Of a stretch of DNA of 61,457 bases, positions 3,706-56,035 are shown one piece after another. Each line of letters opens with the position of its first letter. The stretch's first letter is position 1. The notes beneath the pieces are model-generated. The model saw only the letters and a program-made list of their open reading frames with translations. It was not told where the DNA came from and ran no database searches. Location: assembly GCA_963632375.1 (NCBI GenBank), contig CAVGUB010000111.1:81913-143369 (forward strand). Reading direction: 5' to 3'. Position numbers and translations under genes: made by a program. This DNA comes from Phocaeicola dorei (GTDB taxonomy: Bacteria > Bacillota_I > Bacilli_A > RFN20 > CAG-826).

Positions 3706-6324
3706 TTAAGTATCAGATAGTGCATATTTGTACAAAAACCATTGTTTTATTGAAGTTTTTACAACTTCCCCACTTCCGTTTGGAATATATAAATAATCAA
3801 GATATTGAAATTCAAGACTAATTCTAGAACTTGTATTTACATATTCTATTGTTTTTTCATCCTTTACTGAATATATAGTTTGATTATCATTTGGTCAAAT
3901 AGTCAAAGTCTTGTTTTTATTCATATGAATTAGTTTGATATATTGACCATGTTTTGGATTACTTGGAAGTTTTAAACTCATATCTGATGTATTATTTACT
4001 CAATAATAACTATACTCATTTAACAATATATCATTATTCTCAGCTTCGTCTGTATGGATCATTTGATTAGAACCCGTTATATAATACGGTGCAGGTTTAA
4101 AACCTGCTATTGTACCATTACCACAATTTAATGCGAAATTATAATTACTTGTATACGCCTCTGTGTTTAAATACAAACCATTGCAAGCAGGCATTTCGTA
4201 ATTTAAAACATTTGCATAAGAATTTGGTAATGTTTTTGTATATACAGAAGAAAGATATGCCCCATATAAAATTCTTCTAATTTCGCCTGAAGGGACTTCA
4301 GTAATCTCTGCATTGTTAGAATTTATTTTGAATTCGTTTTTAGTTGTTTTTGTTTCTGTTTCAACTTCATCTCAAGTAAGCGGCGCATCGAATTTAATTC
4401 AAAATGAATTTGGATATACGTTTGCAAAATTAGTACTTTTATCCCCAGCAGTTGAATCAGCGTACGCGATTCCATTACTATCTATTTTTCATTTACCAAT
4501 AATTCCGCTATTAGCTCCAATTGTACCGTTTTTGGTAACATAGAAACCACCATCGCCCAATTCAGGTTCACCTTTGTCTGATATTGTAACATCTCCCGCA
4601 ATAATGGTTCCATCACCACGTAATTCAAGATTTCCACTTGAATGTTTGATAACACCACCATCAATATATCAGCCTTGATTAGTACCTATTAACATTGTAC
4701 CTGTAGACAAAGTTTCAAAACTTGAAATCTGTACTCATATCTTTGCATCAGATCCTGGTTTTATATTTATATTTTGTGTTGTTTCATCAAAACCAATACA
4801 CTTCCAATAGGTTCAAGAAGATGAACTAGCGTCTGCATAAGATACGTAATCCAAATAATAAACCTCTTTATCTACATCTTCTGTTTCTAAAGATACCGTT
4901 TTTCCATCATAATATCTATCGGTTTCATTTCATTTTCTAAAACGACTAATAGCACCTGACTTACCTGCTTCACCCGGATCACCTTTCGTACCTGTAGCAT
5001 ACACACCTCAATGTTCTGTATCTTGATCTGGTGTAACATCACTTGTAACTTTTGATTTACAAATATACGATACAACGTTACCATCAACAGTATATGTTAC
5101 AATATCGTTTTGTGTGTAAGTGTTTACGGAACTTCACTCACCTCTAAAGATTGTTATTGGTTGTTCACCAGTTCCATCTCTTTGAACCATTACACCATCA
5201 AGAAGTAAATTGCCATCACCGTACATCAAACGTTCACCTAATTTTAGTTTGTCGTTTTGCAAATCGAGGAAACTTGTACCATCTGGCGATGCAAATAAAT
5301 AAGCTCTCACTTGACCAGGTGTAATTTCTGTGAAACCGTTCATTGTGCTGATACTAGGACAACTACTTCCATTTGTTACAATGGCATAAAGCATATAATA
5401 TCATTCATCACCCTCATTGTATTCTACTGCATTCTGTGTATAGTAGAAATAACCTGTACCTGTTTTAGCATATAAACCTGGTCCATTTTTAGTGTCATCG
5501 GGGGATTCTTTTTCAGCATAAAATACGGTAGGCTCACCTGAATAATATTTACCACTTTCTGTGTCATATTCAAGACTAATATTAGCACCATTTAAGCCTG
5601 TGCCCTGTTTTTCAGGATTACTTTCTTGAATGCCAAGTACACTCTTATATGGAACTACCAAATAACAATAATATGCCTCATCATTATTTAGGGTTAATAT
5701 CATTGATTCTTCTTCACAATCCTCGTTAAGGATTTGTCAACGCCAATAATCATTTCCACTTCTACTTTGATTATCTGGAGTAACCGATGATGGGCCATCT
5801 AAAGTGTAATGTTTTATATATCCTGGTGTAAATTCTACAAACCCGTCATCATTAAGTTTCAATGGGCTTTCGGCCACAGACATATCTGTAAAACTCTTAA
5901 CTCATTCAAATTGTAGTTGTTCTGATCCTACAGAAATTTGCATTGTACTAACTGTTATTGGAGAAATAGTTTGTGTGTATCCATTTAACAATGCGTTTTC
6001 TAGAGCTTTTTGTGTTTTTGTTACATCTTCCCAAGAACGAGTCGTAACATAATTTTTTAATTTTCTACGTAAATCCTCGGATGTAATATAATCATCTAGA
6101 TTGATTTGTTCTTGTTGTTGATTATTGGAATCAGAAGAATCTTCAGATGTACTGTCTGTAGCTTGTTCTACAGCCTTACCAATTAAACTGTCAATATCAT
6201 TTAATTTTCCATAATCAATTTCATATAGTTTATCTCGAACCTTTATATATAAATGTCCAGATGTTTCAAGAATCAAATCTTTATTTGGTTTTCCTAAAAT
6301 TTCACCATTATTTATTAATGCCAT
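3706..6324 (-). CDS. Large virion structural protein (about 872 aa, function unassigned)
   Basis: Track fragments 5902..6324, 5401..5703, 5134..5394 and 4000..4194 are all in one frame. My hand translation of 3706-4390 found only TGA interruptions and a TAA at 3706-3708. The off-frame track ORFs 4482..4664 and 4887..5087 look spurious. Confidence 0.65.
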
Positions 6325-22527: not shown

Positions 22528-23352
22528 TTAAAACAATTTAATAGGGAACATATCCCCAAATACTCAATAATCTCTTATTAAATCATCTCCTTTTATAGGA
22601 TTTAAATATTTAATCCCTTCAAATTTAATCTTTGAAGTACATTCGCATTTACTGTTGTCAGAATCCCTAAGAAACAAACCAAGACACTCGGAACTTTCAA
22701 GAGCATCTAAAAGCTCAGATGCTTCTCTGTGCTGGTAACTAGAGGTATATTCACGTATCAACAATAAAGCAGAAAGTAATACATTACGTTTATATTGAAG
22801 TTCTTTGTCAACTTTATGATTTTGCTTTTTAGAATCCTCATATGTTTGTTCAGCCTCAACAAATGCTTTCTTCAAAAGCTCATAAGAAAAAACGTAATAT
22901 TTTACATATACTGCATCATTGTTTCCTTCAACTCAAGCTCCAGAGTCCAATAAATTAAACAAGTCTTTTATTGCTACTTCATTACACTTAGATAAATCAA
23001 TTATGTCTAGATTTTCAGTATTATAATACACTTTCTGTTTATAATAGAAGAAAGAATATTTTTCTAACTTACCATCTAATACATATTTCTTTATCCTAGG
23101 AATTAAGATTCTATAAAAAGCATGCATTCCGTCTTCAGGAAGAGCAAATGATGCTTCTTTCAAATCATTTTCTGAAGTAATGTTTTCAATAATAGAAACA
23201 TTGCTTAATTGATCATCTTTTAAAATACAGTCAATGCAAACATAATTTGTTAAATCTAAATCTCTATATTCTTCTAAAACGTCCTCAACAATAAGATTGC
23301 CACCTTTAAATGAGAACTCCAGTGCAGGTTTATTATTAACAGAAGCTATCAT
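22528..23352 (-). CDS. Hypothetical protein (274 aa)
   Basis: Track ORFs 22933..23352 and 22564..22875 share one frame and are joined across TGA codons. TAA at 22528-22530. Its ATG overlaps the portal TAA. Confidence 0.55.
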
Positions 23353-25553
23353 TATAAGTTTTTAATTGCATCGTTATAAGGATTACTATCAAAAAGTTGA
23401 GATGCTTCTAATTGAAGTTGCTTTTCTTTAACCTCGATAAGCTTCTCATTATGCTCCTTATCATCTTTGGCTTTCTTAGTATCTAAATCAATCCTTTGTT
23501 TTTCAAGATTTAACTTAGTCTCACTATTCTTATCAATAGTTTTATTAAGATTCTTGTTTTCCTCTTGAAGTTGTTGATTTTGTTTTTGAAGTTCTTTTGC
23601 TTGCTGAGTTAATTGATCTAATTGTTGTTTTAATTGACCAAGCATATTATTTTCTTGTTTCTTAGAAGCAACAGCATCGTTGATATAACCTTTCAGCTCT
23701 GTTATATTTTTAGATGTCATAATGTTAAATACCATTGTAGGATCAATTAATCCTGCTTTGATCATTTCTGTACTTGTTGCTTGTAATACTTGTTTATCCT
23801 GGAATGATTCTGTACTATCCAAAATATGAATATCAAAATCAGTCATAGTATAATACTCAGGTAAAGCAGTAAAGATTTGATTTAATCTAGTTCCATTTAT
23901 AATAGTTCCTGTAAATCCTTTTTTAAATACGAATTTAGCAAGATTTAAAATATCATAATTTACTTCTTTGTAAATAGCATCCATTGTGGAGAAATACTGC
24001 TTTGTTAGTAAAGAAGATTGTCTAATTCCAACCTTTACATTACTTACAGCATCTCTTTGTTGAATTCCGCCCAATTTCTCAGCAAATACACCTGTAATTG
24101 AACTAGCTTGTTGTTCAATACTTTGTAAAACCAATTCAAATGCTTGAACCGCTTGTGCACGAACAGAATCATCATATCCATTAAATGCAGTGTTTATAAG
24201 ATTAGCGCCATCTTGTGAAGAATCATATAAAGCAAGTCCCTGCTTTTTATACGCTAACCATTTTTGAAGCCTGTCTGGTAGCTCAACACCTAATGCGCTC
24301 GGCATGGATGCGATATCAACTCAATCTCCAGTTGTTCCAGATGAAGCTAATAGACTATCTCTAAAGAAGATTACGAGATCATATCGATCCTGCAGATCCA
24401 TTGTATTTAACACAATACTAAACGGATCTCCGTTTCGATCCGCAAGAAAAGCACCATTAATACTTAAAGTGCAATCCTTTGGATTTGATATAGATCGAGA
24501 GATGTATTTTGATTCACCTCTAACAATGTAAATCTCATCTCCAATCTTAACACCTTCGTGACGAGTTAGTCTGTTTTCTTTTTCATCATATACTAATCAT
24601 TCACACTCATAAACACAAATCAAATTGGTATTCGTGTTATACATATTAGTAGAAGTAGTTCTAAAAGGGGATACTTCCAAACCACCTAAAATACCTGGTG
24701 TGACAGTGTTCTGTGGAAGTGGTTCCATACTAGTGGTAACATATGTATAAACCTCATTTGTATTAGAAGATGAATGATAAAGTTTTTTAGATATTTTCTC
24801 TTTAGCTTCAGAAGATAATTCATCACCAAATTCTACCAAGATTTGTTCTCTAGTCATTCATCTTCTAACAACAGCTCTAGGCGATTTATTTAAATAAAAC
24901 TCACTATAGTTTCTTTCTATAAATGTGTCATTAGGATTTAATGCCTCAAATTTAATTGAAGTACCACTGTTAGAAGGTTTTACTCTATAATACGCAGTTC
25001 CTGTAACTAACAAATCAGTCAAAAGCTCTCGCATTTTATTTTTCATATCAATGTCACGAGAGTGTTTTGCATAATTTAAGATGTTTTGTGCTGCTAATTC
25101 ATATTCAGACACATAGCTTTTAGCAACATCATTTTTGACTCTGTTTAACTCTTGTTCGAAATACGGGTCGTTTACTGGTTCTTTACCTTCTTGAAAAACT
25201 TGTAAAATAGCATTTTGTAATTTCTCTTTATAGAAATTATATGCAGCTGTATCAATTTTCAATTGCTCATCACGCATAATATTTGATACAGTCTTTTCAT
25301 CTTTACAAGAAATTTGTAAATCAGGATCAAGTTCCAGGTATTCTCCAATTAACACATCAATATGCTTTTTAATCAAAGGTGTAAAACCTACAGATGTTGG
25401 AGTTCCTAAACCGTAATTCTCTTCAAGATGTCTAAATTGTTCCTCATCACGTATACAATGATAATAGTTATATGCTTTCTTTATTTGAGTTTTCTCATAA
25501 ACTAAATCAGCGATACATGAATTAATTTTCTCAATTTCAATATCTTTATTCAT
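23352..25553 (-). CDS. Portal protein (about 733 aa)
   Basis: Track ORFs 24858..25553, 24597..24857 and 23352..24305 share one frame. Hand translation of 24306-24596 shows only TGA interruptions (24597-24599, 24321-24323). The call rests on size and position just downstream of the terminase. Confidence 0.7.
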
Positions 25554-41740: not shown

Positions 41741-43549
41741 TTACTTTATAACGTTAAGTATAGGATAAGACTTAACCGATTCAATTTTATTTCTCAATCT
41801 AGGATTTGATAAAAGCATTTGTTTGGTCGGATGCGCAAACTCTTCTCCTAAAATTTCAATTTCAGCATGGGTTGTTGGATCATAACCTAACTTTCTAGAC
41901 ATTATTTTTTCAGGAGAAACCTCATTCTTTAATTGAAACGGGTTTATAGATCTTCCATTCGGATAACTAAATTTAATATCTTTTAATTCCGACATTGGAG
42001 TTGTATTTACTTTCTTAGCAAATTGATCAAAATCATAAATTACATCAAAATTATCAGGGTGTACTCCTGATTTTAACCCGGTTACATTTTCTAAAGCTTT
42101 AACAGACGAATAATCAACTTCTCCAAATTTTTGTTTTATTATTTCATTGGCCAATTTATCATATTCTTCAACTCCGTCCAAATATCCAAATCCCTTTTTA
42201 TTTAAATTAATTCTATCAACATTTGTATTTTCAGTGCTTTTAATTTTTAAAAACTTCTGAATTAGTTTGGGGTCTGATATAACTTCATATCCCATATTTT
42301 TTGCTTGATTGAGTTTTTCAGGATTCCCACTTAAAATTTTAATATATTTTTTATCAATAGGTTCATTTTTTATAAAAGAGTCCATTGGCTCTATACTTTT
42401 AAATTTTTTATTTTCAAAAGCAATTGGATCGATAATAAGATAATCTTCACCAGGTCTAATTCTATAATTCTTATGAGTAATAAAACTTTGATCATATGTC
42501 ATATTTGTAAAGATATTGTCTTTTGGGGAGAGTAGAACTTTACCATCTACTATTTCAGGTATTTCTCCAACATTTCTTATAAACATTAAATTTCCATAAT
42601 TTGTACGCCCAATATTTCCTTTGCTTTTTACATTTTTAAGTCAAAAACCAAGTGGAGTTTTCTTATAGATATTTACCTGACTTGCATCTAAATTAATTGG
42701 AATGTTTTGTTTAGTTATAACCGGGGTTACCTTGTCTCCAACTTTTATATCATTAGCTGTAAAATATTCAGATTTTACACCATGTGTATCAAAACGTCCT
42801 AAATGAAAATTTGGATTTGTTTTTGTCTCTATTAAAAATTCATCATTGTGTATTGATCCATATGATTTACCTTTTGTAAAGTGGGGATAATTAGATGAAG
42901 GTCCACTTGTCACTTCTCCGGAGTGTTTTACAGATTCAAAACCTTTTTTATCAACAATTCTATATGCACTACTTTCATCATAATCCATAAAAGGTCTTCA
43001 ATGAACATCTAATACTCTCCCAGATAAGCTTCCTGCAGCACCTCCTAATATCGCCCCTGGATTTAAAAATTCTGCTAATGTACTTTTTGTTTCACCCCAG
43101 TTTTTATTTTGGCGCACAAACTCTCCAAATGTATCATAGTTAGATTTTTTTTGTATGATTTTGTCAATACCTAAACCGCCTAGTGCTCCTCCTACAAATC
43201 CTCCAATTGTTGCGAATGGCGAAGCAACTAATGCAGGCGCTGCAGCAACAATAGGTGCAGTTTGTAGAAATACAGATCCGGATGTATCTATAAAATCTTT
43301 TTGTCCTTTATAAATCTTATCTTTTAGTTTTTGTGTTCGTATTGAATCTGGTAGTTTTCTAAAATCTTTCGGTTTAAGATTATCTGGAGTTTCCTCATAA
43401 ATAGTATCTATAATAGAACTAGCACCGTTGTCATATAACCATTGACGATGTGCTTTGGCATCATTACTTCAAAATCATTCAGGATGTTGTATAGCATATT
43501 CCTGAATTCTGTTGATGTGCCCGTAGTAATCATTGTGTTTGTATTTCAT
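41741..43549 (-). CDS. Large hypothetical protein with Gly-rich hydrophobic segment (about 602 aa)
   Basis: ATG 43547-43549. Track ORFs 42641..42988 and 41741..42586 share one frame, joined by TGA 42641-42643. Further TGA lie upstream of 42988. This is the first gene of the minus-strand arm. Confidence 0.55.
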
Positions 43550-43592
43550 AGTACAAAGATAATAAAAAATATAATGCAAACAAAAGGATACA

Positions 43593-43641
43593 TAGGCAAT
43601 CAATCCCCCCGGCTTCGCCGTTGGGAAATTGATTGCCTTTT
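43593..43641. terminator. G+C-rich hairpin with T run at the arm junction
   Basis: AGGCAATCAAT ... ATTGATTGCCT encloses CCCCCCGGCTTCGCCGTTGGG and is followed by TTTTT. Confidence 0.45.
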
Positions 43642-43718
43642 TAGACATTTTCCAAAATTTAGAGAAGAAGAAAAAGAAACTACTTCTCCGTGACGGTTGC
43701 TACGTTAACGTAACTATA

Positions 43719-43778
43719 ACAATCTTTGTAACAAGATTGTACAGTGACACCACAATGCTTGTACAATCTTGCTACAAA
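43719..43778. promoter_or_regulatory. Nested inverted repeats upstream of the first plus-strand gene
   Basis: 19-nt arms TTTGTAACAAGATTGTACA (43725-43743) and TGTACAATCTTGCTACAAA (43760-43778), with one mismatch. An inner palindrome ACAATCTT/AAGATTGT is also present. Confidence 0.45.
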
Positions 43779-43826
43779 ATCTGACGCAGACACAGATTTT
43801 GGTTGTCTGCAATAAATACATTGAAG

Positions 43827-44105
43827 ATGTATATTCTCAATGCATTTAGCCTCCAAATGCTGGAAGATTATCCATGTGAAGTTCGCTTCACAGAAGTGGA
43901 TAGTCTTCCTGCCGGCTTGGAGAGTGCTGTTGGTCATGCTGACACGGCGGCGGTTCTTGGAGTTCCAATGAACCGCATCTCTGTCAAATTGGCGAAAGGC
44001 GACACTGCTTATGTTGCGCAACTCATAGGCGGTCGTCTCCCAGAGGGCAGCACAACTCTCCCGGAAGGCTTCTCTTTCAGATATCTGAAAGTAGAAGTTC
44101 TTTAA
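43827..44105 (+). CDS. DUF1874 (STIV B116-like) protein
   Basis: MYILNAFSLQML...ESAVGHADTAAVLG...GDTAYVAQLIGGRLPEGSTTLPEG matches my recollection of the B116/DUF1874 family. True ATG at 43827. Confidence 0.6.
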   Translation: MYILNAFSLQMLEDYPCEVRFTEVDSLPAGLESAVGHADTAAVLGVPMNRISVKLAKGDTAYVAQLIGGRLPEGSTTLPEGFSFRYLKVEVL

Positions 44106-44254
44106 GTCAACGGAGCCTGGGCGGAATGACCCAGAGGCAACCATTCCCATTCTTTGGCACGTGATGAGCGTTGTGGTTAAGTAGCCAAAGTAACTGTTTT
44201 GCAAGGTGCTCGTGTATATAGGATGAACCTTGTGTAATTATTAATCAGATTGTT
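44106..44254 (+). promoter_or_regulatory. Three-hairpin intergenic module, copy A
   Basis: Stems 44116-21/44130-35, 44152-58/44184-90 and 44202-07/44227-32. Loop sequences are conserved with copy B. Confidence 0.6.
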
Positions 44255-44473
44255 ATGGAAACAATTATGATTAACGGCCGCGCTTATGCGTGCACCTACG
44301 ACTGCGACTTCCAAGCAGACGGAGGTCGCATCTTCGGCGATGACGAGGCTGACCAGGAAATTGTCGGGTCGGTCTACATCGTCCGTAGAGACGATGGCGC
44401 AGAAGTTAGCGTCGAGAAATTCTATGGAGCCTCACATGAGGCCTTCATAAGAGAAATTCTCCGCAAATTTTAG
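44255..44473 (+). CDS. Hypothetical protein (72 aa)
   Basis: Intact ORF, G+C-rich, TAG stop. Confidence 0.55.
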   Translation: METIMINGRAYACTYDCDFQADGGRIFGDDEADQEIVGSVYIVRRDDGAEVSVEKFYGASHEAFIREILRKF

Positions 44474-44476
44474 GCC

Positions 44477-44621
44477 TAGGCATGGGTAGAAGATCCCATT
44501 GACAAACATTCCGCTCCCCAAAGATGTGATGAGCATTGGCGTTAAGTTACTTTGGGTAATTGTTTAATGGAGTTCTTGTGTATATAGAATGAACTCCTAT
44601 AATCCATAATTGTGTTAAGAT
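44477..44621 (+). promoter_or_regulatory. Three-hairpin intergenic module, copy B
   Basis: Stems 44482-86/44495-99, 44517-23/44550-56 and 44569-74/44592-97. Loops GTGATGAGCATTGGCGTTAAGT and CTTGTGTATATAGAATGA. Confidence 0.6.
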
Positions 44622-44861
44622 ATGATTATACACAAGATATGGGATCTCTGTGAAATCAAGAGACGAAATATGCGTGCATATCGCGCATTAACAAATCTCT
44701 TGAAATCCAACAATTTCGATGCATACTGCAAAGAAATCGAAGGTTTCGCAGAGATCGAGTGGCGTCCGTCACTCGTAAACGTCTATTACAACAACATGAT
44801 TGTTGTAATAGAAGTGAATGAGATTAACGGATCCATCGAAGATATTCGATGCGTGGATTAA
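44622..44861 (+). CDS. Hypothetical protein (79 aa)
   Basis: Intact ORF, TAA stop. Confidence 0.55.
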   Translation: MIIHKIWDLCEIKRRNMRAYRALTNLLKSNNFDAYCKEIEGFAEIEWRPSLVNVYYNNMIVVIEVNEINGSIEDIRCVD

Positions 44862-44916
44862 TCCACCACTCAAGGTAGCCAATGGGCTTCGAATGACAGG
44901 TAGGGCTGTCAGCCAA

Positions 44917-44966
44917 TACTCAGACATTTTCGGGTGTTTAAGATGGTTCGATTCCATCCTGAGTAC
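44917..44966 (+). ncRNA. tRNA-like minihelix (acceptor stem plus T arm only)
   Basis: TACTCAG (44917-23) pairs with CTGAGTA (44959-65). The T arm is GATGG TTCGATT CCATC (44942-58). Only 18 nt lie between them, so there is no D arm or anticodon arm. Confidence 0.45.
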
Positions 44967-45243
44967 TATTCCCGCACTGTGCGGGTGCAGCTGTGCAGTA
45001 AACAGCAAAGACGCTTGTAGACGAGCTGGTGATAGACAACACTATCCAGACATTTGTCTGTAATCAATCTATATGGATTGAGGTTGGAGTACGCCGAAGT
45101 ACAGTAAGCAGCACAGGTTAGGCACTGTGCGGTAATCCACATTTACGCGATGGGGGATGAAGAGCCAACAATGTTTGTATAGATTGATCCGAGAACACGT
45201 TGTTCTCAGGCATTGGGGAAGCCTTAAGACCCGTTTGACTACC

Positions 45244-45723
45244 ATGGCTATTACTATTATGCCTGTAAGTAGCGCATCTGAGGCCCACAAGAATGTGGGC
45301 CTATTCTGTGGTGAACTTTTCAAGTTCACCCAAGGTGAACTTGTGGTCTTCGGACCACAGGACACAAGGGCGTATGGATCTACGCCATTTAAGAAAAGCG
45401 TAATGCTTTCGGCCGTCTGTAAGGACGGCAAGGGGCATAAATTAATATTCCCAATCCAGGCATTGAGGCACAGGCCTCTAAAGCCTGTGAATCCTCAACA
45501 GTGGGACTCCCTGAAAAGGGAGTTCCCTATGTTGAGGGAGGCTATTATAGCCCCTCTGGGACATTTGGAGTATTACTCCAACATCCCAGAAGGGACATAT
45601 AGGATCGAGGTCCGAAAGGTCCTCGATCAGGCAAAAGCCGATGATGGGACTCTCGAGCAGTTCGAGAGGACCATCAACATCTTAGTACCTGCCCCTTCTA
45701 AGAGGGCAGGTTCTAAGAAGTAG
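45244..45723 (+). CDS. Hypothetical protein (159 aa)
   Basis: First ATG of track ORF 45157..45723. G+C-rich; TAG stop. Confidence 0.55.
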   Translation: MAITIMPVSSASEAHKNVGLFCGELFKFTQGELVVFGPQDTRAYGSTPFKKSVMLSAVCKDGKGHKLIFPIQALRHRPLKPVNPQQWDSLKREFPMLREAIIAPLGHLEYYSNIPEGTYRIEVRKVLDQAKADDGTLEQFERTINILVPAPSKRAGSKK

Positions 45724-45789
45724 CCGAAACTAGGGGGAGAGGGGAGTCTCTCCCCCTAGTCACAGGGGAGGTTGTTCTACCCCTGTCTG

Positions 45790-45960
45790 ATGATGGCAGA
45801 ACTATCAAAACAAAACAAACCAGAACAAGAAATGACATTCTGGGATCTCATGCGTGAGGCTGGGAAATATAATCTTCAGGAGGTTGCTCGTCAATACCTG
45901 AAGAGGGATTATGATCCAGCTACTGTGTGGGAAATTCTGGTAGAGGAATACAACCTCTAA
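45790..45960 (+). CDS. Small hypothetical protein (56 aa)
   Basis: First ATG of track ORF 45772..45960. Preceded by G+C-rich hairpins (CTAGGGGGAGAG...CTCTCCCCCTAG). Confidence 0.45.
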   Translation: MMAELSKQNKPEQEMTFWDLMREAGKYNLQEVARQYLKRDYDPATVWEILVEEYNL

Positions 45961-46195
45961 CAGTGTGAGCTGATATCTCACTGTCAACTATCCGGAGAAT
46001 GCATCAACCAATAAAAGGGTCTCCGTTAACAACTTGGCATAATTTTATTTAAAGGGGTGTGGCTTGCGCTACGCTCCTTATTTTTTTAAGGTGGAGGGGG
46101 AGCGTGCTTCGCTGCAGCTCGCACCGCTCGCCCTGCGGGGCACAAAGACATTTGCCAATATGTAGTGTATAACAATATTATTGCAAAATTTAATT

Positions 46196-46747
46196 ATGGC
46201 ATTGAGTAAATCTGACTCGCCAGTTGTATACACACAGACTGGCGTGACTGCCGTAACAGGCAGTCTTGAGAGCCTAAAGGGCTCTCACGTATCCTTCAAC
46301 GGATACGGTATCGATGTGAACGAGACCGTCACATTCGGTACTATTGAAGAGTACGGTCTCGATGGGAACATTAAGAGAGTTCCAACCTATAACGGTTCAA
46401 GCCGTTATAGCATCTTGGTACGTGTAAATCGTACCAAAAACGGAGTCACTAAAGACTCCTGGTTCAACATGGGCGTTTTATCACGTCAGTTGAACGCTGC
46501 TGATGGCAAATCTCTCCCTGTAGATAAATTCAGGGAAGATATGATTGCAATCGATGACGATTATAATCGATTGATTGCAATCGCGGGGAAAACCATCAAG
46601 GGTGTCGAAACGAAAAAAGCGTTTCGCCCTGTCTTTGAGCGTTCAAAGGACGCTCAAGGCAAACCGGTCTTCACTGTCGTGAAGAACGAGGACGGCTCCC
46701 GTAAAATGGAGCCTGCAGAGTACGTAGTTGTTGATTATGTTAAATAA
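46196..46747 (+). CDS. Hypothetical protein (183 aa)
   Basis: First ATG of track ORF 46181..46747. TAA stop. Confidence 0.6.
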   Translation: MALSKSDSPVVYTQTGVTAVTGSLESLKGSHVSFNGYGIDVNETVTFGTIEEYGLDGNIKRVPTYNGSSRYSILVRVNRTKNGVTKDSWFNMGVLSRQLNAADGKSLPVDKFREDMIAIDDDYNRLIAIAGKTIKGVETKKAFRPVFERSKDAQGKPVFTVVKNEDGSRKMEPAEYVVVDYVK

Positions 46748-46787
46748 TCAACAATTTACTGTACTCGGTGACCACTGAGAGAATTAT

Positions 46788-46837
46788 ATCATATCCAATG
46801 TAGGCAAATTGTTTGTCTGCAATGGATATGATTTTTT
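46788..46837 (+). terminator. Intrinsic terminator (21-bp imperfect hairpin plus T6)
   Basis: ATCATATCCAATGTAGGCAAA ttg TTTGTCTGCAATGGATATGAT TTTTT. Confidence 0.7.
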
Positions 46838-47309
46838 AAATCTCAGAGGTTACTGAACTTTAGAACCTTGTGGTGAATGTTATATCATCATTAGGTTCCA
46901 ATATCTTTAATCCAGAGTGGAGTGATATCCTATCTGGGTTCTAATGCATTCTTGCATTATTTTTATGTTTTTTTTATTTTTTTTGGACATCAAATCATTG
47001 ATCCCAATTCTAGTTACCGTGTTTTGCGCACTTGAGCGGTCGTTAGTTTGGATAAATCAATGGTTTGATATTATGTGTAAACGAAAAGTTAAAGTGCGCC
47101 ATTTACCCTGAGTGAGATATCAGGTAGCATAGAGATACATCTGTGCGAACTTAGGTTCCATGTAACAGTGGAGTTTCGAGCCTAAGAGTACAAGTTCGAA
47201 ACCTTGTACTAAATCCGAAGATGCTGAAGAAGTATCTGAATGTATCAACCCTATAATAGGTGTGTAACTTGCATGCATCTAGACTATTATGGGGTAACTT
47301 CCTTTATAA

Positions 47310-47474
47310 GCAATACCTTTACGTGGTTTGGAAGATAAGTAGACTTATGTCGAAACTAAAATTGCTGAACACAATCAATTTCTTTAGTCATAATTCTGTA
47401 GTTTTTGTGGTTTAAGTAGTTTTTCTTTTTTCCAATTGATTGTGTTTAACTGCACAGCAGTGAATGCTCTGCAG
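47310..47474 (+). ncRNA. Structured RNA candidate, unit 1 of a tandem pair
   Basis: Closing stem GCAAT/ATTGC around ACCTTTACGTGGT...ATAAGTAG...CGAAACTAAA. Then a 13-bp hairpin (47368-80/47434-46), then hairpin CTGCACAGCA gtgaa TGCTCTGCAG. Confidence 0.5.
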
Positions 47475-47487
47475 AATGGCATCGATG

Positions 47488-47599
47488 ATACATACCTTTA
47501 CGTGGTGATGCTATAAGTAGGTTTATCCGAAACTAAATGTATTAGAGTCATGGTAGTCTTAACACCTACAGCAGTGAATGCTCTAGGTGTTTTCTTTTG
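47488..47599 (+). ncRNA. Structured RNA candidate, unit 2, ending in an intrinsic terminator
   Basis: Closing stem ATACA/TGTAT around the same conserved strands. Terminal hairpin CACCTACAGCA gtgaa TGCTCTAGGTG, followed by TTTTCTTTT, 28 nt before ATG 47628. Confidence 0.5.
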
Positions 47600-47627
47600 A
47601 AGTTTAACAAATTAAAACAATATAACA

Positions 47628-48074
47628 ATGAAAGTAAGTGAAGTTACAAAACTAGCGTTTGATTTTGGATCGAAGAAATATCTCATCGAGGAGAACGGAG
47701 ATCTCAAACTCTTAACCCTTCTAAAGAAGGTTGAACCTTCTGCAATTTGTTCAGAGATGCATAAATCTCTGATTGCTCGAATGACTCACTGTCGTGAACA
47801 GATTGAGCAGAAAGAGGTAGTATTTTGTGAACCCGATTTTATTGGGTTCTCAGATGGTACACATTTTTCTGCACATGCATATAATGCAATGGAGTCTTTG
47901 AGTAACATATTATCTTCAGTAAAAGTATCTAATCCCATGAAATTTATTCAACGATTGAATGCTTTTGAACTCATTCAGTTACTAAAGGCTGAATCTGAGT
48001 TTGGTGGCCGTTTAAAAAACGAAGTCATCAATATAATCTCAAATTGTATTGCTTGTAACTACAAAAATGATTAG
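47628..48074 (+). CDS. Hypothetical protein (148 aa)
   Basis: Intact ORF, TAG stop. Confidence 0.6.
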   Translation: MKVSEVTKLAFDFGSKKYLIEENGDLKLLTLLKKVEPSAICSEMHKSLIARMTHCREQIEQKEVVFCEPDFIGFSDGTHFSAHAYNAMESLSNILSSVKVSNPMKFIQRLNAFELIQLLKAESEFGGRLKNEVINIISNCIACNYKND

Positions 48075-48075
48075 T

Positions 48076-48228
48076 ATGATGGTTCGTTTTTTTAGATGGC
48101 TGCTCAAAGTTGAGCATGCCATCTACTGTTTTACAAATTGCAGAATTGAATTGCCGTTTCATAAACAGTACTATAAATACTGTCGTACTAAATATGAAGC
48201 GTATATAACGAATAAAACCACTCGTTAA
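48076..48228 (+). CDS. Small Cys-containing ORF (50 aa)
   Basis: ATGATG start 2 nt after the previous stop. TAA lies inside the terminator hairpin. Confidence 0.3.
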   Translation: MMVRFFRWLLKVEHAIYCFTNCRIELPFHKQYYKYCRTKYEAYITNKTTR

Positions 48229-48238
48229 GAGTGGTTTT
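48214..48238. terminator. Bidirectional hairpin terminator
   Basis: AAAACCACTC gttaa GAGTGGTTTT, between convergent genes. Confidence 0.65.
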
Positions 48239-48401
48239 ATTTTGTTTTATATTAAATGTAATTCTGCATCAACAACTTCACGTTGTACAATTTGTTGTAA
48301 TTTCATATTATTTCATTTTAATAATACAAATATACAATAATTTTTGTACGGCGATGAGTAACAATGAGTTAACAGTTTATCTCTATCTATTATTATTGAC
48401 A

Positions 48402-48926
48402 CTAGTTTTGGATTGGTTCTGATTGAAATGTAACGATTAAATCTTTACGTTTTTTCAAGTCACCTTTTCAAAACATTTCTGGGTTGATAGTATATTCTCC
48501 TCTTAACGTTTTGATTTCACCTGTAGTTTTATCTACAGTTGATTCTGGATATAGTGCATGTACTTCAACCAATTGATTAATTGATTGCGTTAATGTACTT
48601 TTCTTGATATCAAGTTCAGCCATTATATCAACACGTCTTCCAGGTGATAGAGATACTTTACCTGTTTCCCATTCAGCGTATTCTAACAACTTATAAAGTA
48701 TTTTTAATGTTGTTAGGCTTTTAATACCATACATCCAACTAACACAGTTAAGAAATACCATATAAAATTTATCGTCATCATCGACTTTAAAGTTAATTTT
48801 CTTTTCTGTAGTTTGGACACGAGTTCTACCTTGTTCATCAATAACTTTTTGTTCTGATGAATATACTGTGAATTTTTTAGACATTTTTAAACTTTGTTTA
48901 TTTATAGTGATCTTTTGTTTATTCAA
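48402..48926 (-). CDS. Winged-helix DNA-binding protein (Rep/regulator-like)
   Basis: Track ORF 48468..48926. Its TGA (48468-48470) may be Trp, which extends the frame 22 codons to TAG 48402-48404. An iteron array lies upstream of its start. Confidence 0.5.
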
Positions 48927-49827: not shown

Positions 49828-49974
49828 ATGACAAGAAAAATTAAAGTGACTCGTAAAATCAAAGTGATTAACGAGCAAGGAAAAGAAACTTTTATACTTT
49901 CTACTTTTCCATGTAAAGTAAATGCTGCTGTTCCATTTGATCATAATATGGTGAAATATGAAAGGGCATTGTAG
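49828..49974 (+). CDS. Small basic ORF (48 aa)
   Basis: ATG 49828, TAG 49972-49974. Overlaps the next ORF by 17 nt. Confidence 0.3.
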   Translation: MTRKIKVTRKIKVINEQGKETFILSTFPCKVNAAVPFDHNMVKYERAL

Positions 49975-50299
49975 TCTTTATTCTTTTGACTCAGGAAAAC
50001 AATTTCTTGGTTATACTACTTCTTCTGAAGTTATAACCTTTCCTGAGGCTTATCCTATTACTATGGATATTTCAGATGTAAAACCTTCACACTATCCAGA
50101 TCTTGAATTAATCAATCTGGATGAACTTTTTACAACTAAAAGAACTACTGATAAAAGATTGGCTGAAGAACATATCACAACATTCACTGATTTGTACTAT
50201 TCCAATTACCTTATCAAACTTAATCTTCTTAAAAAGCCTGCAAATATCCGCCAACTTGTGTTAAACAAATATGCAGATGTGATGGAATATGAAGATTAA
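49958..50299 (+). CDS. Hypothetical protein (113 aa)
   Basis: Intact ORF. Overlaps the clpP start. Confidence 0.55.
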   Translation: MKGHCSLYSFDSGKQFLGYTTSSEVITFPEAYPITMDISDVKPSHYPDLELINLDELFTTKRTTDKRLAEEHITTFTDLYYSNYLIKLNLLKKPANIRQLVLNKYADVMEYED

Positions 50300-51162: not shown

Positions 51163-51226
51163 AATATGTTAGTTTAGTGGTAAAACAAACTTTTAGTTTA
51201 CATAGGTTCGATTCCTATACATATTT
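51163..51226 (+). ncRNA. tRNA-like gene with truncated anticodon arm (tRNA pseudogene or mimic)
   Basis: Acceptor AATATGT/ACATATT, D arm GTTT-AGTGGTA-AAAC and T arm ATAGG-TTCGATT-CCTAT are canonical. Only 15 nt lie between the D and T arms, folding as AAACT-TTT-AGTTT (5-bp stem, 3-nt loop). Total length 64 nt. Confidence 0.5.
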
Positions 51227-53583: not shown

Positions 53584-54978
53584 ATGGATAAATTTCTTGA
53601 AGCAATCAGTACAAAAAATACTTATACTGATAACGGAGCTTTAACTAACAGTACTTCTTTAAATAAGTGCTTAGACTTTTTTTCAATAGCAGGTAATCAT
53701 ATTGAGAATATAGAATCTTTTGAAGCAGCTTATGGAGAAGATCCACAACTTGCTTTAAGAATTTTATTTTGGAGTAGAGATTGTAGAGGTGGTGCTGGTG
53801 CTCGTAAAAACTTTATTGCTGTAATGAAGAAACTTCAAGTTGAAAAACCTGATGTTTTTTCTAAAGTCTTTAAGTTTATACCTGAATTTGGCTATTGGAA
53901 AGATATTTACAATCTAAAGCCCACACAAGAAGTTGTTAGTTTTGTTGCTAAAACATTAAAGAATGATACAGATCATTCTTTATGTGCTAAATACTGTCCT
54001 CGTAAAGGAGAATGGTTTTATCATCTTCGTGTTCGTTTTAAAATGTCTTTAGCTCAATTTAGACATTTTATTGTTAAGAAAACTCAAGTAGTTGAAAACC
54101 AAATATGCAAGAAAGAATGGAATGAAATAGAATATTCTTCTGTTCCTTCTGTGGCAAATCTTCGTTACAAAGAAATATTTACAAAATATGATTTTAAACG
54201 TTATAGGGAGTATATTAAATCTGTTCTTAAAGGAGAAAATAAGATTAATTCCTCTGTTTTGTTTCCAAATCAAATATTTCATAATTGGGACATTGGTTTA
54301 AGAAAGGATGGGGATACTGCTAAAGCCTTGTGGGATAATCTTCCTAATTATATGGAAGGTTGTACAGAAAGAATTCTTCCTGTATGTGATGTGTCAGGTT
54401 CTATGTGTGGTACTCCATTAGAAGTTTCTATTGCTTTGGGTTGTTATATTTCAGAACGTAATGAAGGACCTTTTAAAGATGCTTTTATAACGTTTAGTGG
54501 AAAACCTCAAATTAATATCTTAACTGGTGATATTATATCACGTTTCTCGCAGTTATCTAATGCAGATTGGGGATATAATACAAATCTTCAAGCTGTATTT
54601 GATTTGATTTTAAAACGAGCATTGGAAAACAATCTTTCTAATGACGATATGCCATCTAAGATATTGATCATAAGTGATATGCAATTTGACAAAGCCTTGA
54701 AAAATAGAGAAAGATTTGGAAATCCCGAAATCACTAATTATGAGGCAATTAAAGATGCATATGCTTCGTATGGTTATAACCTTCCTGGTATAATCTTTTG
54801 GAATGTTAATGGAGATGCTGGTAAAGTTCCTGTTACAATGAAAGACTTTAACACTGCCCTTGTGTCAGGATATTCTCCTAGTATTCTAACATCCATTCTT
54901 AAAGGTAAAGTATTAACTCCAATAGACGTTATGCTAAATACCGTAAATAGTGAACGATATAAAAACATAAAATTATAA
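53584..54978 (+). CDS. DUF2828-like protein with C-terminal vWA (MIDAS DxSxS) domain
   Basis: N-terminus ...YTDNGALTNSTSLNKCLDFF...LALRILFWSRDCRGGAGARKNF and VCDVSGSMCG fit the DUF2828/vWA architecture as I recall it. Confidence 0.6.
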   Translation: MDKFLEAISTKNTYTDNGALTNSTSLNKCLDFFSIAGNHIENIESFEAAYGEDPQLALRILFWSRDCRGGAGARKNFIAVMKKLQVEKPDVFSKVFKFIPEFGYWKDIYNLKPTQEVVSFVAKTLKNDTDHSLCAKYCPRKGEWFYHLRVRFKMSLAQFRHFIVKKTQVVENQICKKEWNEIEYSSVPSVANLRYKEIFTKYDFKRYREYIKSVLKGENKINSSVLFPNQIFHNWDIGLRKDGDTAKALWDNLPNYMEGCTERILPVCDVSGSMCGTPLEVSIALGCYISERNEGPFKDAFITFSGKPQINILTGDIISRFSQLSNADWGYNTNLQAVFDLILKRALENNLSNDDMPSKILIISDMQFDKALKNRERFGNPEITNYEAIKDAYASYGYNLPGIIFWNVNGDAGKVPVTMKDFNTALVSGYSPSILTSILKGKVLTPIDVMLNTVNSERYKNIKL

Positions 54979-55052: not shown

Positions 55053-56035
55053 TTGCGGTAGACATAAAGATTTTTTGTCTTTGTGTTTGCCATATTCTAA
55101 ATTATTTTGTATATTTGTACGATCTTTTAACAATTAAATTTTATTAAAATGAAAAATAAGTACACAAAAGAAGATTTAGAAAATGTAGCAAAACAATGTT
55201 TGTCGTGACGACAAATGCTTTTACATTATGGATTAAGAGAGACTGGAGGAAATTATACAGCTATGCATAATAGATGTAAAAAATATGAGATAGATACTTC
55301 TCATTTTACTGGTCAGGGTTGAAATAAAGAAGGACATGAGAATTTTGCTGGTAATATAGATTTGCAAAAAAGATTCTCTATTCATAAGAAAAAACAACCT
55401 TCTTCTAAAACTAAAGAAGTTTTATTAATGCATAATTTAAAAGAAAATAAGTGTGAAATTTGTGGATGTACAGAATGACAAGGAAAACCAATTATTCTTC
55501 AATTACATCATAAAAATGGTAATCCATTTGATGATAGATTGGAGAATCTTCAAATTCTTTGTCCTAATTGTCACTCACAAACGGATACTTATTGTAAAAG
55601 ACATAAAATACGAAAATCTATAAATTTGAGTGCACTGAAGGAAACTTCGGATGTAGAACTACCCTAATTCGGTGAAAATCCTAAATCCTAATCAAGGTCG
55701 TAATGAAAACACGACGTTAAATAAACTAGGAAGTTGGATTGGACAACGCCGAGCTAAATTGAATATTAAAGAAGAGACACACGGAAGGCCCGTCAATTAG
55801 TATTCATAAATGTGTAGAGCACATAGAGGTAGAACCTAAGTTAGAAATTATGAGTATCCCCAGACTCGGTGACAGGATTATATCCTCAGGGACCAATAAG
55901 GGTGTAAGGAGAAAGTAACTTGCAAGATTTCTAATACGGTTAAGACATGTGCCGGACTACAACAACTTGAATGCGAAATTTTACAGCACCATTTAAGACT
56001 GGTTCAAGTTGGCTATGGTAACATAGAGTAGTAGG
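55053..56035 (+). mobile_element. Putative group I intron in tRNA-Leu(UAA) carrying an HNH ORF
   Basis: 983 nt sit between anticodon positions 34 and 35. It ends in G and has a CTATG-GTAA-CATAG hairpin (GNRA tetraloop, 56013-56026) 9 nt from its 3' end. About 370 nt of ORF-free sequence follow the ORF. Confidence 0.55.
55149..55667 (+). CDS. HNH homing endonuclease (172 aa)
   Basis: ...YEIDTSHFTGQG-W-NKEGH... and LQLHHKNGNPFDDRLENLQILCPNCHSQTD (HNH). Three in-frame TGA at 55206, 55320 and 55476. TAA at 55665-55667. Confidence 0.85.

Follow-up and report, generated by a model that had tools for sequence, protein, structure and literature searches.

A repeated intergenic cassette with covarying hairpins in the putative early gene block of a crAss-related phage

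Two neighbouring intergenic spacers (44106–44254 and 44474–44621) in a 61,457-nt stretch of contig CAVGUB010000111.1 (assembly GCA_963632375.1; hereafter, the window) carry copies of a structured cassette, and covariation among its relatives supports selection on its base pairing. Each copy starts at a stop codon, stops about 20 nt short of the next start codon, and measures about 130 nt, with four helices, namely three hairpins (HP0, HP1, and HP2) and a predicted pseudoknot; the conserved parts are the loops. Comparison of related contigs shows the cassette to be the conserved flank of exchangeable open reading frames (ORFs) and to recombine itself. The description that suits it best is a novel and more complex form of the regulatory and recombination cassettes found between genes of T4-type phages, here in the putative early block of a crAss-related phage.

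Covariation in the cassette helices

A first-pass annotation of the window had described the two spacers as homologous, each with three hairpins. Alignment bears this out, with 80% column identity over the whole length of the spacers, and all three hairpins are present in both copies where they had been placed (Table 1). The HP0 hairpin of copy 1 also stands, but its stem has 5 bp (CTGGG/CCCAG) rather than the 6 bp proposed, as the outer C and A of CCTGGG/CCCAGA are unpaired. In 61 kb, 0.01 occurrences of the HP1 loop motif GTGATGAGCRTTGNNGTTAAGT would be expected and exactly two are present; the only exact copies of the HP2 loop motif in the window are likewise these two.

Ten distinct copies were compared: the two in the window, metagenome relatives, and variants rebuilt from read differences. 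For the window copies alone, RNAalifold predicts 31 pairs, 13 of which are kept via changes on both sides. Among four distinct sequences, 95.8% of cells are paired, with both-side changes in 6/7 HP1 pairs and 3/6 HP2 pairs; among all ten, the paired fraction is 91.4%, and both-side changes affect 13 pairs (29 cells). In neither comparison did any of 500 shuffles equal the observed values, and sliding the 3′ partners by 1–3 columns in the ten-sequence alignment left pairing at only 25–50%. Compensatory changes beyond both shuffled and slid controls are what is generally looked for in a structured cis-acting RNA. By helix, pairing across the ten sequences is 98% for helix 1 (HP0, one compensatory pair), 78% for helix 2 (the pseudoknot, two compensatory pairs), and 90.7% for helix 4 (HP2, both-side changes in four pairs); for helix 3 (HP1) it is 98.6%, with both-side changes in six of the seven pairs.

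At least five different stems enclose the type-I loop of HP1 (CTTTGGC, CTTGGGC, CCCAAAG, CTCGAAG, CCCAAGG), and at least five enclose that of HP2 (CAAGGT, GAGGT, GGAGTT, GGAATT, ACTGTTT). With about 17 different HP1 and HP2 stems around the same loops in relatives, simple duplication offers no explanation. The first-pass argument, that conserved loops within differing but complementary stems point to selection on structure and not to simple duplication, is thereby strengthened. A protein-binding palindrome can be ruled out, since its arms would be conserved and instead they covary. The same annotation had proposed a search for further copies and a covariance model. Such copies exist in related contigs, and a model made from the ten sequences (R1) detects two full copies in the window and no more, at 140 and 138 bits (the third-ranked match scores 11 bits, E 4.9); in the related locus L136 it detects three.

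The predicted fourth helix joins the HP0 loop GGAATG to the complementary CATTCC, 7 nt 3′ of the hairpin, across an A-rich linker with a conserved GACAA; this geometry corresponds to an H-type pseudoknot. Over 12 related domains, loop-to-downstream complementarity beats that of composition-matched shuffles (combined Fisher p 0.006), and both strands vary among loci (Table 1). G-U pairs on the + strand are present in HP0 and in the pseudoknot (L134, L128). As the pseudoknot needs a single strand, it and these G-U pairs favour an element acting at the RNA level.

A further inverted repeat, AGTTA…TAACT, encloses the 3′ arm of HP1 (44179–44195 and 44545–44561) in all cassette copies; in B-type copies, AGTTA pairs with TAATT through G-U. 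A different hairpin, in which this 3′ arm forms the loop, could therefore compete with HP1, and the repeat may explain the inversion of the HP1 arms between copies.

Cassette halves, relatives, and exchanged cargo

The cassette is built from two halves. The first, comprising the pseudoknot and HP1 (a 7-bp variable stem and a 25-nt conserved loop), always lies 7–11 nt after a stop codon. The second, comprising HP2 (a 5–7-bp variable stem around YGTGYATATAGR) and a TATAAT-like, A/U-rich leader, always lies 5′ of the next unit, which is an ORF with its ATG 8–19 nt after the hexamer or, for copy C of L136, a tRNA-like element. The first half occurs alone at two places. In the window, a third, partial cassette (45961–46025) follows an ORF ending at 45960 and stands directly 5′ of a strong intrinsic terminator; it has an HP0 (GTGAG/CTCAC, 45965–45981), a pseudoknot (GATA/TATC), and an HP1 (CGGAGA/TCTCCG, 45993–46025) with a type-II loop (..CAATAAAAGGG). 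The terminator marks + strand transcription through the block. Type-II HP1 loops (..CAATAAAAG..) are also found in spacers of L124 and L134, which are more distant B116 loci, and in copy C of L136, each flanked by a different Watson–Crick stem; L128 has the loop variant CACTATAAAAG. The second place is L122 (3280–3400; also L123), a natural deletion variant that retains HP0 and HP1 and, past GTAAC, continues directly with the tail of a non-coding RNA (ncRNA; ..CCACTCCCGATATTCGGGCGCAG). This deletion removes HP2, the cargo ORFs, and the tRNA-like element, with TAAC microhomology at the junction. Because the first half stands alone before a terminator and is fused to an ncRNA tail in L122, it does not appear to be a promoter.

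Pattern and protein-anchored scans of IMG/VR identified no cassette copy, only chance matches or non-syntenic B116 genes. No copy was found in a scan of GTDB genomes, and querying the GenBank phage collection with 43000–47000 (megablast and blastn) returned no match. Scanning JGI/ENA metagenome contigs recovered a syntenic relative (L115/L117/L119, with L119 from a 167,774-bp contig); further copies came from contigs encoding the closest B116 homologues or the single homologue of the 79-amino-acid (aa) ORF. The B116-like gene 5′ of copy 1 has 2696 relatives, and the same cassette lies behind the closest of them; five among the closest (P0003, P0008, P0010, P0013, P0025) have no cassette and carry other spacers of similar build.

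In L119, the order is B116-like gene, cassette A, 56-aa ORF, cassette B, a homologue of the window's 79-aa ORF (5069–5308), and the same non-coding RNA region; the 56-aa ORF is unrelated to the 72-aa ORF of the window. In L121, a single cassette precedes a 199-aa ORF. L132 is an A/B chimera that combines A-type HP0 and HP1 with a B-type HP2 bearing a new stem (GGAATT/AATTCC), and L136 has three copies, including the divergent copy C. Different ORFs thus follow the same cassette in L119, L121, L132, and L136; in the first three of these, unrelated ORFs replace the 72-aa ORF, a homologue of which lies behind a different spacer in L124. Contigs from manure and other metagenome runs retain both cassettes at 90–95% identity to L119, with the intervening DNA replaced (skips of 191 and 250 letters, and of 268 and 215 letters). 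Homology among relatives stops at the HP0 5′ arm and at or next to the TATAAT after HP2, and the GTAAYTGTTT linker between the halves is where both the chimera in L132 and the fusion in L122 have their junction. The cassette is kept while its cargo is not, so it acts as a portable homology block by which phages exchange small ORFs. The pseudoknot, the two-half build, the partial copy at 45961–46025, and this conserved-flank role were not part of the first-pass annotation.

With cassettes retained, the DNA between them replaced, and chimeras formed, these elements behave like the promoter-early stem-loop (PeSL) cassettes of T4-type phages (Arbiol et al., 2010, PMC2839356; Comeau et al., 2014, PMC4122927). 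Both are short conserved intergenic cassettes with stem-loops that run from a stop codon to the start of the next gene, and both are repeated in a plastic, ORFan-rich region where they flank insertions, deletions, and replacements between close relatives. However, PeSLs measure about 70 bp and contain a consensus sigma-70 promoter, a single G/C-rich terminating stem-loop, and a Shine-Dalgarno site, with about 50 copies per genome, whereas the present cassette has about 130 nt, four helices, no clear sigma-70 promoter, and two to three copies per genome. Its stems are not followed by T runs, no gene in the window has a Shine-Dalgarno site, and the terminase is crAss-related rather than that of a T4-type myovirus. 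Integron attC sites are likewise structured inverted repeats that flank exchangeable small gene cassettes, with free sequence and retained pairing. GTTAAGT fits the attC motif GTTRRRY, but there is no RYYYAAC partner and no R′′/R′ core pair, no integrase was seen among the proteins scanned, and the breakpoints lie at homology edges rather than inside a core site.

Genomic setting and neighbouring RNA elements

The window has about 31% G+C; the segment 43800–46900, with the B116-like gene, the cassettes, the ncRNA, and the next small ORFs, forms an island of 45–52%. Up to about 43.6 kb, structural genes are encoded on the − strand; from 43.8 kb onwards, the + strand carries small genes. The B116-like gene is the first of the G+C-rich + strand block, and its stop lies 11 nt 5′ of HP0 of copy 1. 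Just 5′ of this gene, where transcription directions diverge, a cluster of strong inverted repeats at 43700–43800 (for example TTTGTAACAAGATTGTACA / TGTACAATCTTGCTACAAA, 19 nt and 95% complementary; AAAATCTG..CAGATTTT) may be an operator or promoter region.

Identities of 28–31% between the large terminase and those of crAss-like phages (46% to an unannotated human faecal phage) indicate a crAss-related phage. It also appears to read TGA as sense: the portal gene (23352–25553, −) contains three in-frame TGA codons, and the summed length of ORFs with 150 codons or more roughly doubles once TGA is treated as sense. Two + strand genes (49922–50299 and 55149–55667) contain in-frame stop codons under table 11. 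An Rfam tRNA match at 51163–51226 (+, 47.7 bits, 64 nt), not called by ARAGORN, could be an unusual or suppressor tRNA tied to this recoding. No Shine-Dalgarno site precedes any gene in the window; a Bacteroidota host is likely, and the Bacteroidota −7 box TAnnTTTG is absent between 43562 and 47646. No RNA polymerase (RNAP) gene was seen in the 61-kb window; given the crAss relationship, a virion RNAP is likely encoded elsewhere in the genome. In the crAss-like phage phi14:2, early genes are transcribed by an injected virion RNAP that is active on denatured DNA in vitro, the early transcripts share no common upstream promoter motif, middle promoters resemble sigma-70 −35/−10 boxes, and two early intergenic regions yield very abundant ncRNAs without an assigned function (10.1101/2020.03.07.982082).

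The spacer after the 79-aa ORF, in the same operon, contains a tRNA-like minihelix with a 7–8-bp acceptor stem, a T-arm loop TTCGATT, and no anticodon arm. Across six homologues, 9/13 pairs are kept via both-side changes, with G-U pairs on the + strand; neither ARAGORN nor the Rfam tRNA model calls it. The minihelix belongs to a conserved non-coding region of about 300–565 nt between early ORFs, examined at 44862–45156 in the window and in relatives; 44914–45189 recurs in other runs at about 95% identity with different flanks. About 9 kb 3′ of it, a 464-aa protein is encoded (53584–54978, +) that matches phrog_850 ("RNA-binding protein", E 1.8e-123), DUF2828, and DUF7788 and looks Ro60/TROVE-like; the early operon of crAss001 also has a TROVE-like protein (PMC8375218). 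Given this TROVE/DUF2828 protein, the tRNA-like RNA could serve as a Y-RNA-like partner or mark a punctuation site for RNase P/Z. The idea that the cassette and this ncRNA share deep homology was considered and rejected, as local alignments scored within or marginally above shuffles and only a block of about 20 nt (ACCC(A/T)G..AACCATTCCCGT) is common to both.

The next spacer carries a type II hammerhead candidate with an intact core, directly after the stop of the ORF at 45157–45723; its predicted GUC cleavage site lies near 45757, and the ATG at 45790 that opens the next ORF falls within its CUGAUGA box. Related loci yielded a pistol match above threshold, a type III hammerhead match just below it, and a weak hepatitis delta virus (HDV)-like match, all in spacers of the same kind of operon, the first two in places comparable to those in the window. 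Pistol ribozymes tend to lie near phage genes and other ribozymes (PMC4604425).

Table 1. Features of the cassette region and of related loci. Positions are those of the window unless a locus is named.
Feature	Position	Strand	Basis or remark
STIV B116-like gene, 92 aa	43827..44105	+	Pfam PF08960, E 1e-6; phrog_5063
Cassette copy 1 (A-type), stop codon to TGTAAT	44106..44238	+	R1, 138.2 bits, E 3.6e-25; alignments
Copy 1 HP0: CTGGG / loop CGGAATGA / CCCAG	44117..44134	+	helix 1, covariation
Copy 1 pseudoknot strand CATTCC	44142..44147	+	pairs with HP0 loop GGAATG 44123–44128; A-rich linker AGGCAAC between
Copy 1 HP1: CTTTGGC / 25-nt conserved loop ACGTGATGAGCGTTGTGGTTAAGTA / GCCAAAG	44152..44190	+	helix 3, covariation
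Conserved single-stranded linker TAACTGTTTTG (GTAAYTGTTT)	44191..44201	+	joins the cassette halves; alignment of copies
Copy 1 HP2: CAAGGT / loop GCTCGTGTATATAGGATGA / ACCTTG	44202..44232	+	helix 4, covariation
TGTAAT (most copies TATAAT), 3′ edge of copy 1	44233..44238	+	16 nt 5′ of ATG 44255; alignment
72-aa ORF between the cassettes, exchangeable cargo	44255..44473	+	no family match
Cassette copy 2 (B-type), stop codon to TATAAT	44474..44603	+	R1, 140.2 bits, E 1.4e-25
Copy 2 HP0: ATGGG / TAGAAGAT / CCCAT	44482..44499	+	covariation
Copy 2 HP1: CCCAAAG / 26-nt loop ATGTGATGAGCATTGGCGTTAAGTTA / CTTTGGG	44517..44556	+	covariation
Copy 2 HP2: GGAGTT / loop CTTGTGTATATAGAATG / AACTCC	44569..44597	+	covariation
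TATAAT, 3′ edge of copy 2	44598..44603	+	18 nt 5′ of ATG 44622
79-aa ORF 3′ of copy 2	44622..44861	+	single database protein relative, P0121, 87% identity
tRNA-like minihelix, acceptor stem stacked on T arm, GGTTCGATTCC	44916..44966	+	six-homologue covariation
Relatives of the non-coding region	L119:5309–5731, L121:1290–1854, L132:752–1137, L124:3652–3975, L126:1494–1562
Hammerhead type II candidate	45722..45805	+	31 bits in Rfam (gathering score 37), E 0.002; intact core
Third, partial cassette, first half only	45961..46025	+	read from sequence
Intrinsic terminator, 12-bp stem and T run	46052..46079	+	3′ of the partial cassette
Pistol ribozyme match	L128:3202–3265	coding strand	57.8 bits, above threshold
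Hammerhead type III match	L134:3642–3698	coding strand	45.8 bits, just below 48.5 threshold
Weak HDV-like match	L129:4259–4331	coding strand	29.5 bits
Pseudoknot variant AGGATG/CATCC	L122
Pseudoknot variant GAAAAT/ATTTTC	L136 copy B		B-type
Pseudoknot variant GAAG/CTTC	L119		B-type
Pseudoknot variant ATTATT/AATAAT	L124
Pseudoknot variant TGCAAAT/ATTTGCA	L134
Pseudoknot variant TGGTAT/GTGCCG	L128		three G-U pairs

Readings of cassette function

The reading we favour, at about even confidence, is that the cassette is a cis-acting RNA element for punctuation or stability in a polycistronic early transcript, and a recombination module as well. It would be read on the + (coding) strand; the first half would provide a protected 3′ end or a protein-binding domain for the upstream cistron and HP2 a hairpin close to the 5′ end of the downstream one. 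The RNA would be cut in the single-stranded linker GUAAYUGUUU, either autocatalytically or by a host RNase. In the two spacers that follow, the tRNA-like element and the hammerhead candidate could have the same role. An element acting at the RNA level is favoured by the pseudoknot, by the G-U pairs that it and HP0 form on the + strand, by the position between stop and start codons, and by the first half before the terminator. The RNA-processing signals nearby (the tRNA-like element and type II hammerhead here; pistol and type III hammerhead in related loci) also speak for it, and the abundant early ncRNAs of phi14:2 offer a precedent. All ORFs of the block and the terminator lie on the + strand. 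Repeated related hairpins also occur in the spacers of T7 early mRNA, where RNase III sites separate cistrons and leave stabilising end hairpins; those sites are irregular duplexes of about 20 bp or more, whereas the cassette stems (5–7 bp with large loops) are too short for RNase III. The put RNAs of HK022 have two copies per genome, each with two hairpins, covarying stems, and conserved unpaired parts, and act in cis on early transcription. However, they lie just 3′ of early promoters, one per operon, rather than between cistrons, and share no sequence similarity with the cassette.

Several observations weigh against this reading. Neither spacer folds more favourably than shuffled sequence, whichever strand is taken (z +0.85 and 0.0), so the case for structure rests on covariation and not on energy. 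In HP1 and HP2, 115/117 pairs are Watson–Crick, with one terminal G-U and one A-C; so few G-U pairs would be unlikely at the assumed rate of 5–10% in RNA helices, and such near-pure stems, unusual for RNA, would fit a structure forming in DNA or on both strands. The HP1 arms are nearly swapped between the two window copies (repeat I15), which may reflect one template-switch event instead of six independent double changes; independent compensatory events may therefore be fewer than covarying pairs. The available distinct sequences number about a dozen and come from one narrow clade. In copy 2, CATTCC (44507–44512) pairs over only 3 bp with the HP0 loop, although relatives have better B-type pseudoknots, and copy C of L136 lacks the pseudoknot, so this helix is moderately supported. 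None of the RNA runs searched for the locus contains it, and accordingly no 5′ end, 3′ end, or cleavage site was seen.

The first-pass annotation had offered two functional readings, an mRNA processing or stability element and a promoter embedded in the HP2 hairpin, with an extended −10-like TGTGTATATAG. The promoter proposal proves weak, as the extended −10 is poor, its TTG element lies at an unusable distance, and a simple sigma-70 scan identifies no promoter in the two spacers. A better −10 would be the TATAAT or TGTAAT directly 3′ of HP2. It raises the possibility, which we consider rather unlikely, of a PeSL-like terminator and promoter, in which HP2 and TATAAT form a host-RNAP promoter with its −35 in the hairpin loop, the hairpins attenuate in RNA, and each small gene is its own transcription unit. 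The hexamer does mark the 3′ edge of seven of nine full copies, 8–19 nt before the ATG, with TTGTGT 16 nt 5′ of TATAAT in B-type copies; the PeSL stem-loop of T4-type phages can sit between or over −35 and −10, and their cassettes flank swapped ORFans (PMC2839356); and the middle promoters of phi14:2 have similar boxes. Yet A-type copies have TCGTGT, a poor −35, L121 has TATCAC, and copy C of L136 keeps HP2 without any −10. Moreover, no cassette hairpin has a U tract, the true terminator at 46052 looks different, and a promoter leaves unexplained the conserved 25-nt HP1 loop, the pseudoknot, and why the 3′ half of the HP2 loop, on this view mere spacer within the promoter, is so strictly conserved. 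A further alternative is a DNA hairpin promoter for a virion RNAP, as in phage N4, whose promoters have 5–7-bp stems and 3-nt loops; stems nearly free of G-U would be anticipated where pairing has to occur in a DNA hairpin or on both strands of the DNA. HP2, and perhaps HP1, would then be extruded and its conserved loop read by an injected early polymerase. The terminase affinity, the virion RNAP of crAss-like phages working on denatured DNA from promoters that are not known, the oriented restriction of two to three cassettes per genome to the putative early block, and the easily melted TATATA at the centre of the HP2 loop would all suit such a promoter, as would conserved bases within complementary variable stems. 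On the other hand, loops of 12–26 nt far exceed those of N4 and make extrusion costly, HP1 also occurs directly before a terminator, the attached pseudoknot and the HP0 G-U pairs point to RNA, no RNAP gene is seen in the window, and phi14:2 early transcripts showed no common upstream motif; we judge the proposal improbable. A divided version, in which HP2 with its invariant loop would be a crAss-type virion RNAP early promoter as an extruded DNA hairpin and pseudoknot–HP1 a 3′ RNA end module of the preceding unit, seems improbable as well.

A new class of self-cleaving ribozyme, with the stems framing a catalytic core of conserved loops and linkers and the RNA cutting itself between cistrons, would account for four helices including a pseudoknot and for long invariant unpaired stretches. 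Phage hammerhead, pistol, twister-sister, and hatchet ribozymes occupy the same niche and strand, with covarying stems and invariant unpaired nucleotides; pistol, like the cassette, has a hairpin loop that pairs with a strand further 3′ to form a pseudoknot. Equivalent spacers, in this operon and in related ones, contain hammerhead and pistol matches, and pistol, hatchet, and twister-sister were discovered by looking beside phage genes and other ribozymes (PMC4604425). However, no Rfam 15 family, ribozymes included, matches the cassette, and a permissive ribozyme-class scan of 43000–48500 gave only chance matches in the cassette spacers, with none in the cassettes of related loci. The cassette is modular, its halves occurring separately and with two types of HP1 loop, which disfavours a single catalytic core; we think this reading very unlikely. 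Finally, the spacers may have no function, representing a recent tandem duplication whose palindromes were kept perfect by replication template-switching. Template switching in quasi-palindromes does produce perfect Watson–Crick stems, as seen here, and the swapped HP1 arms could be read likewise. This is nonetheless extremely unlikely given loops that are 90–100% conserved among relatives with 15% coding DNA difference and unrelated cargo, and the same architecture with different sequence at more distant loci.

Other candidates were rejected. By inspection, a kink-turn or box C reading of GUGAUGA in the HP1 loop lacks a GA beside the stem on the 3′ side, and a hammerhead reading of GUGAUGAGC lacks GAAA and has C3 replaced. 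A promoter for a T7-like single-subunit RNAP (..TATAG+1) would have only two copies in 61 kb, with no such polymerase seen. A mini-ORF in the HP1 loop (ATGAGCGTT..) is frameshifted to six codons in copy 1, has no ATG in type-II loops, and has a peptide tail that varies with the stem; another, at ATGAAC in HP2, has ACG for ATG in several copies. Stop-codon read-through stimulated by the pseudoknot would meet a frame that closes within a few codons.

The crAss-related phages are among the most abundant gut viruses, and their early gene expression is largely obscure; the cassette provides a concrete, compact, and testable element of their early block. It is a candidate motif for Rfam, in a genomic niche that yielded earlier ribozyme classes. 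If RNA-level punctuation is correct, these operons would be built from interchangeable units (gene, structured spacer, ribozyme or tRNA-like element); if HP2 is a promoter, early promoter recognition would have been identified. Either way, the cassette explains the exchange of small ORFans between related phages and extends the PeSL idea from T4-type phages to a very different group.

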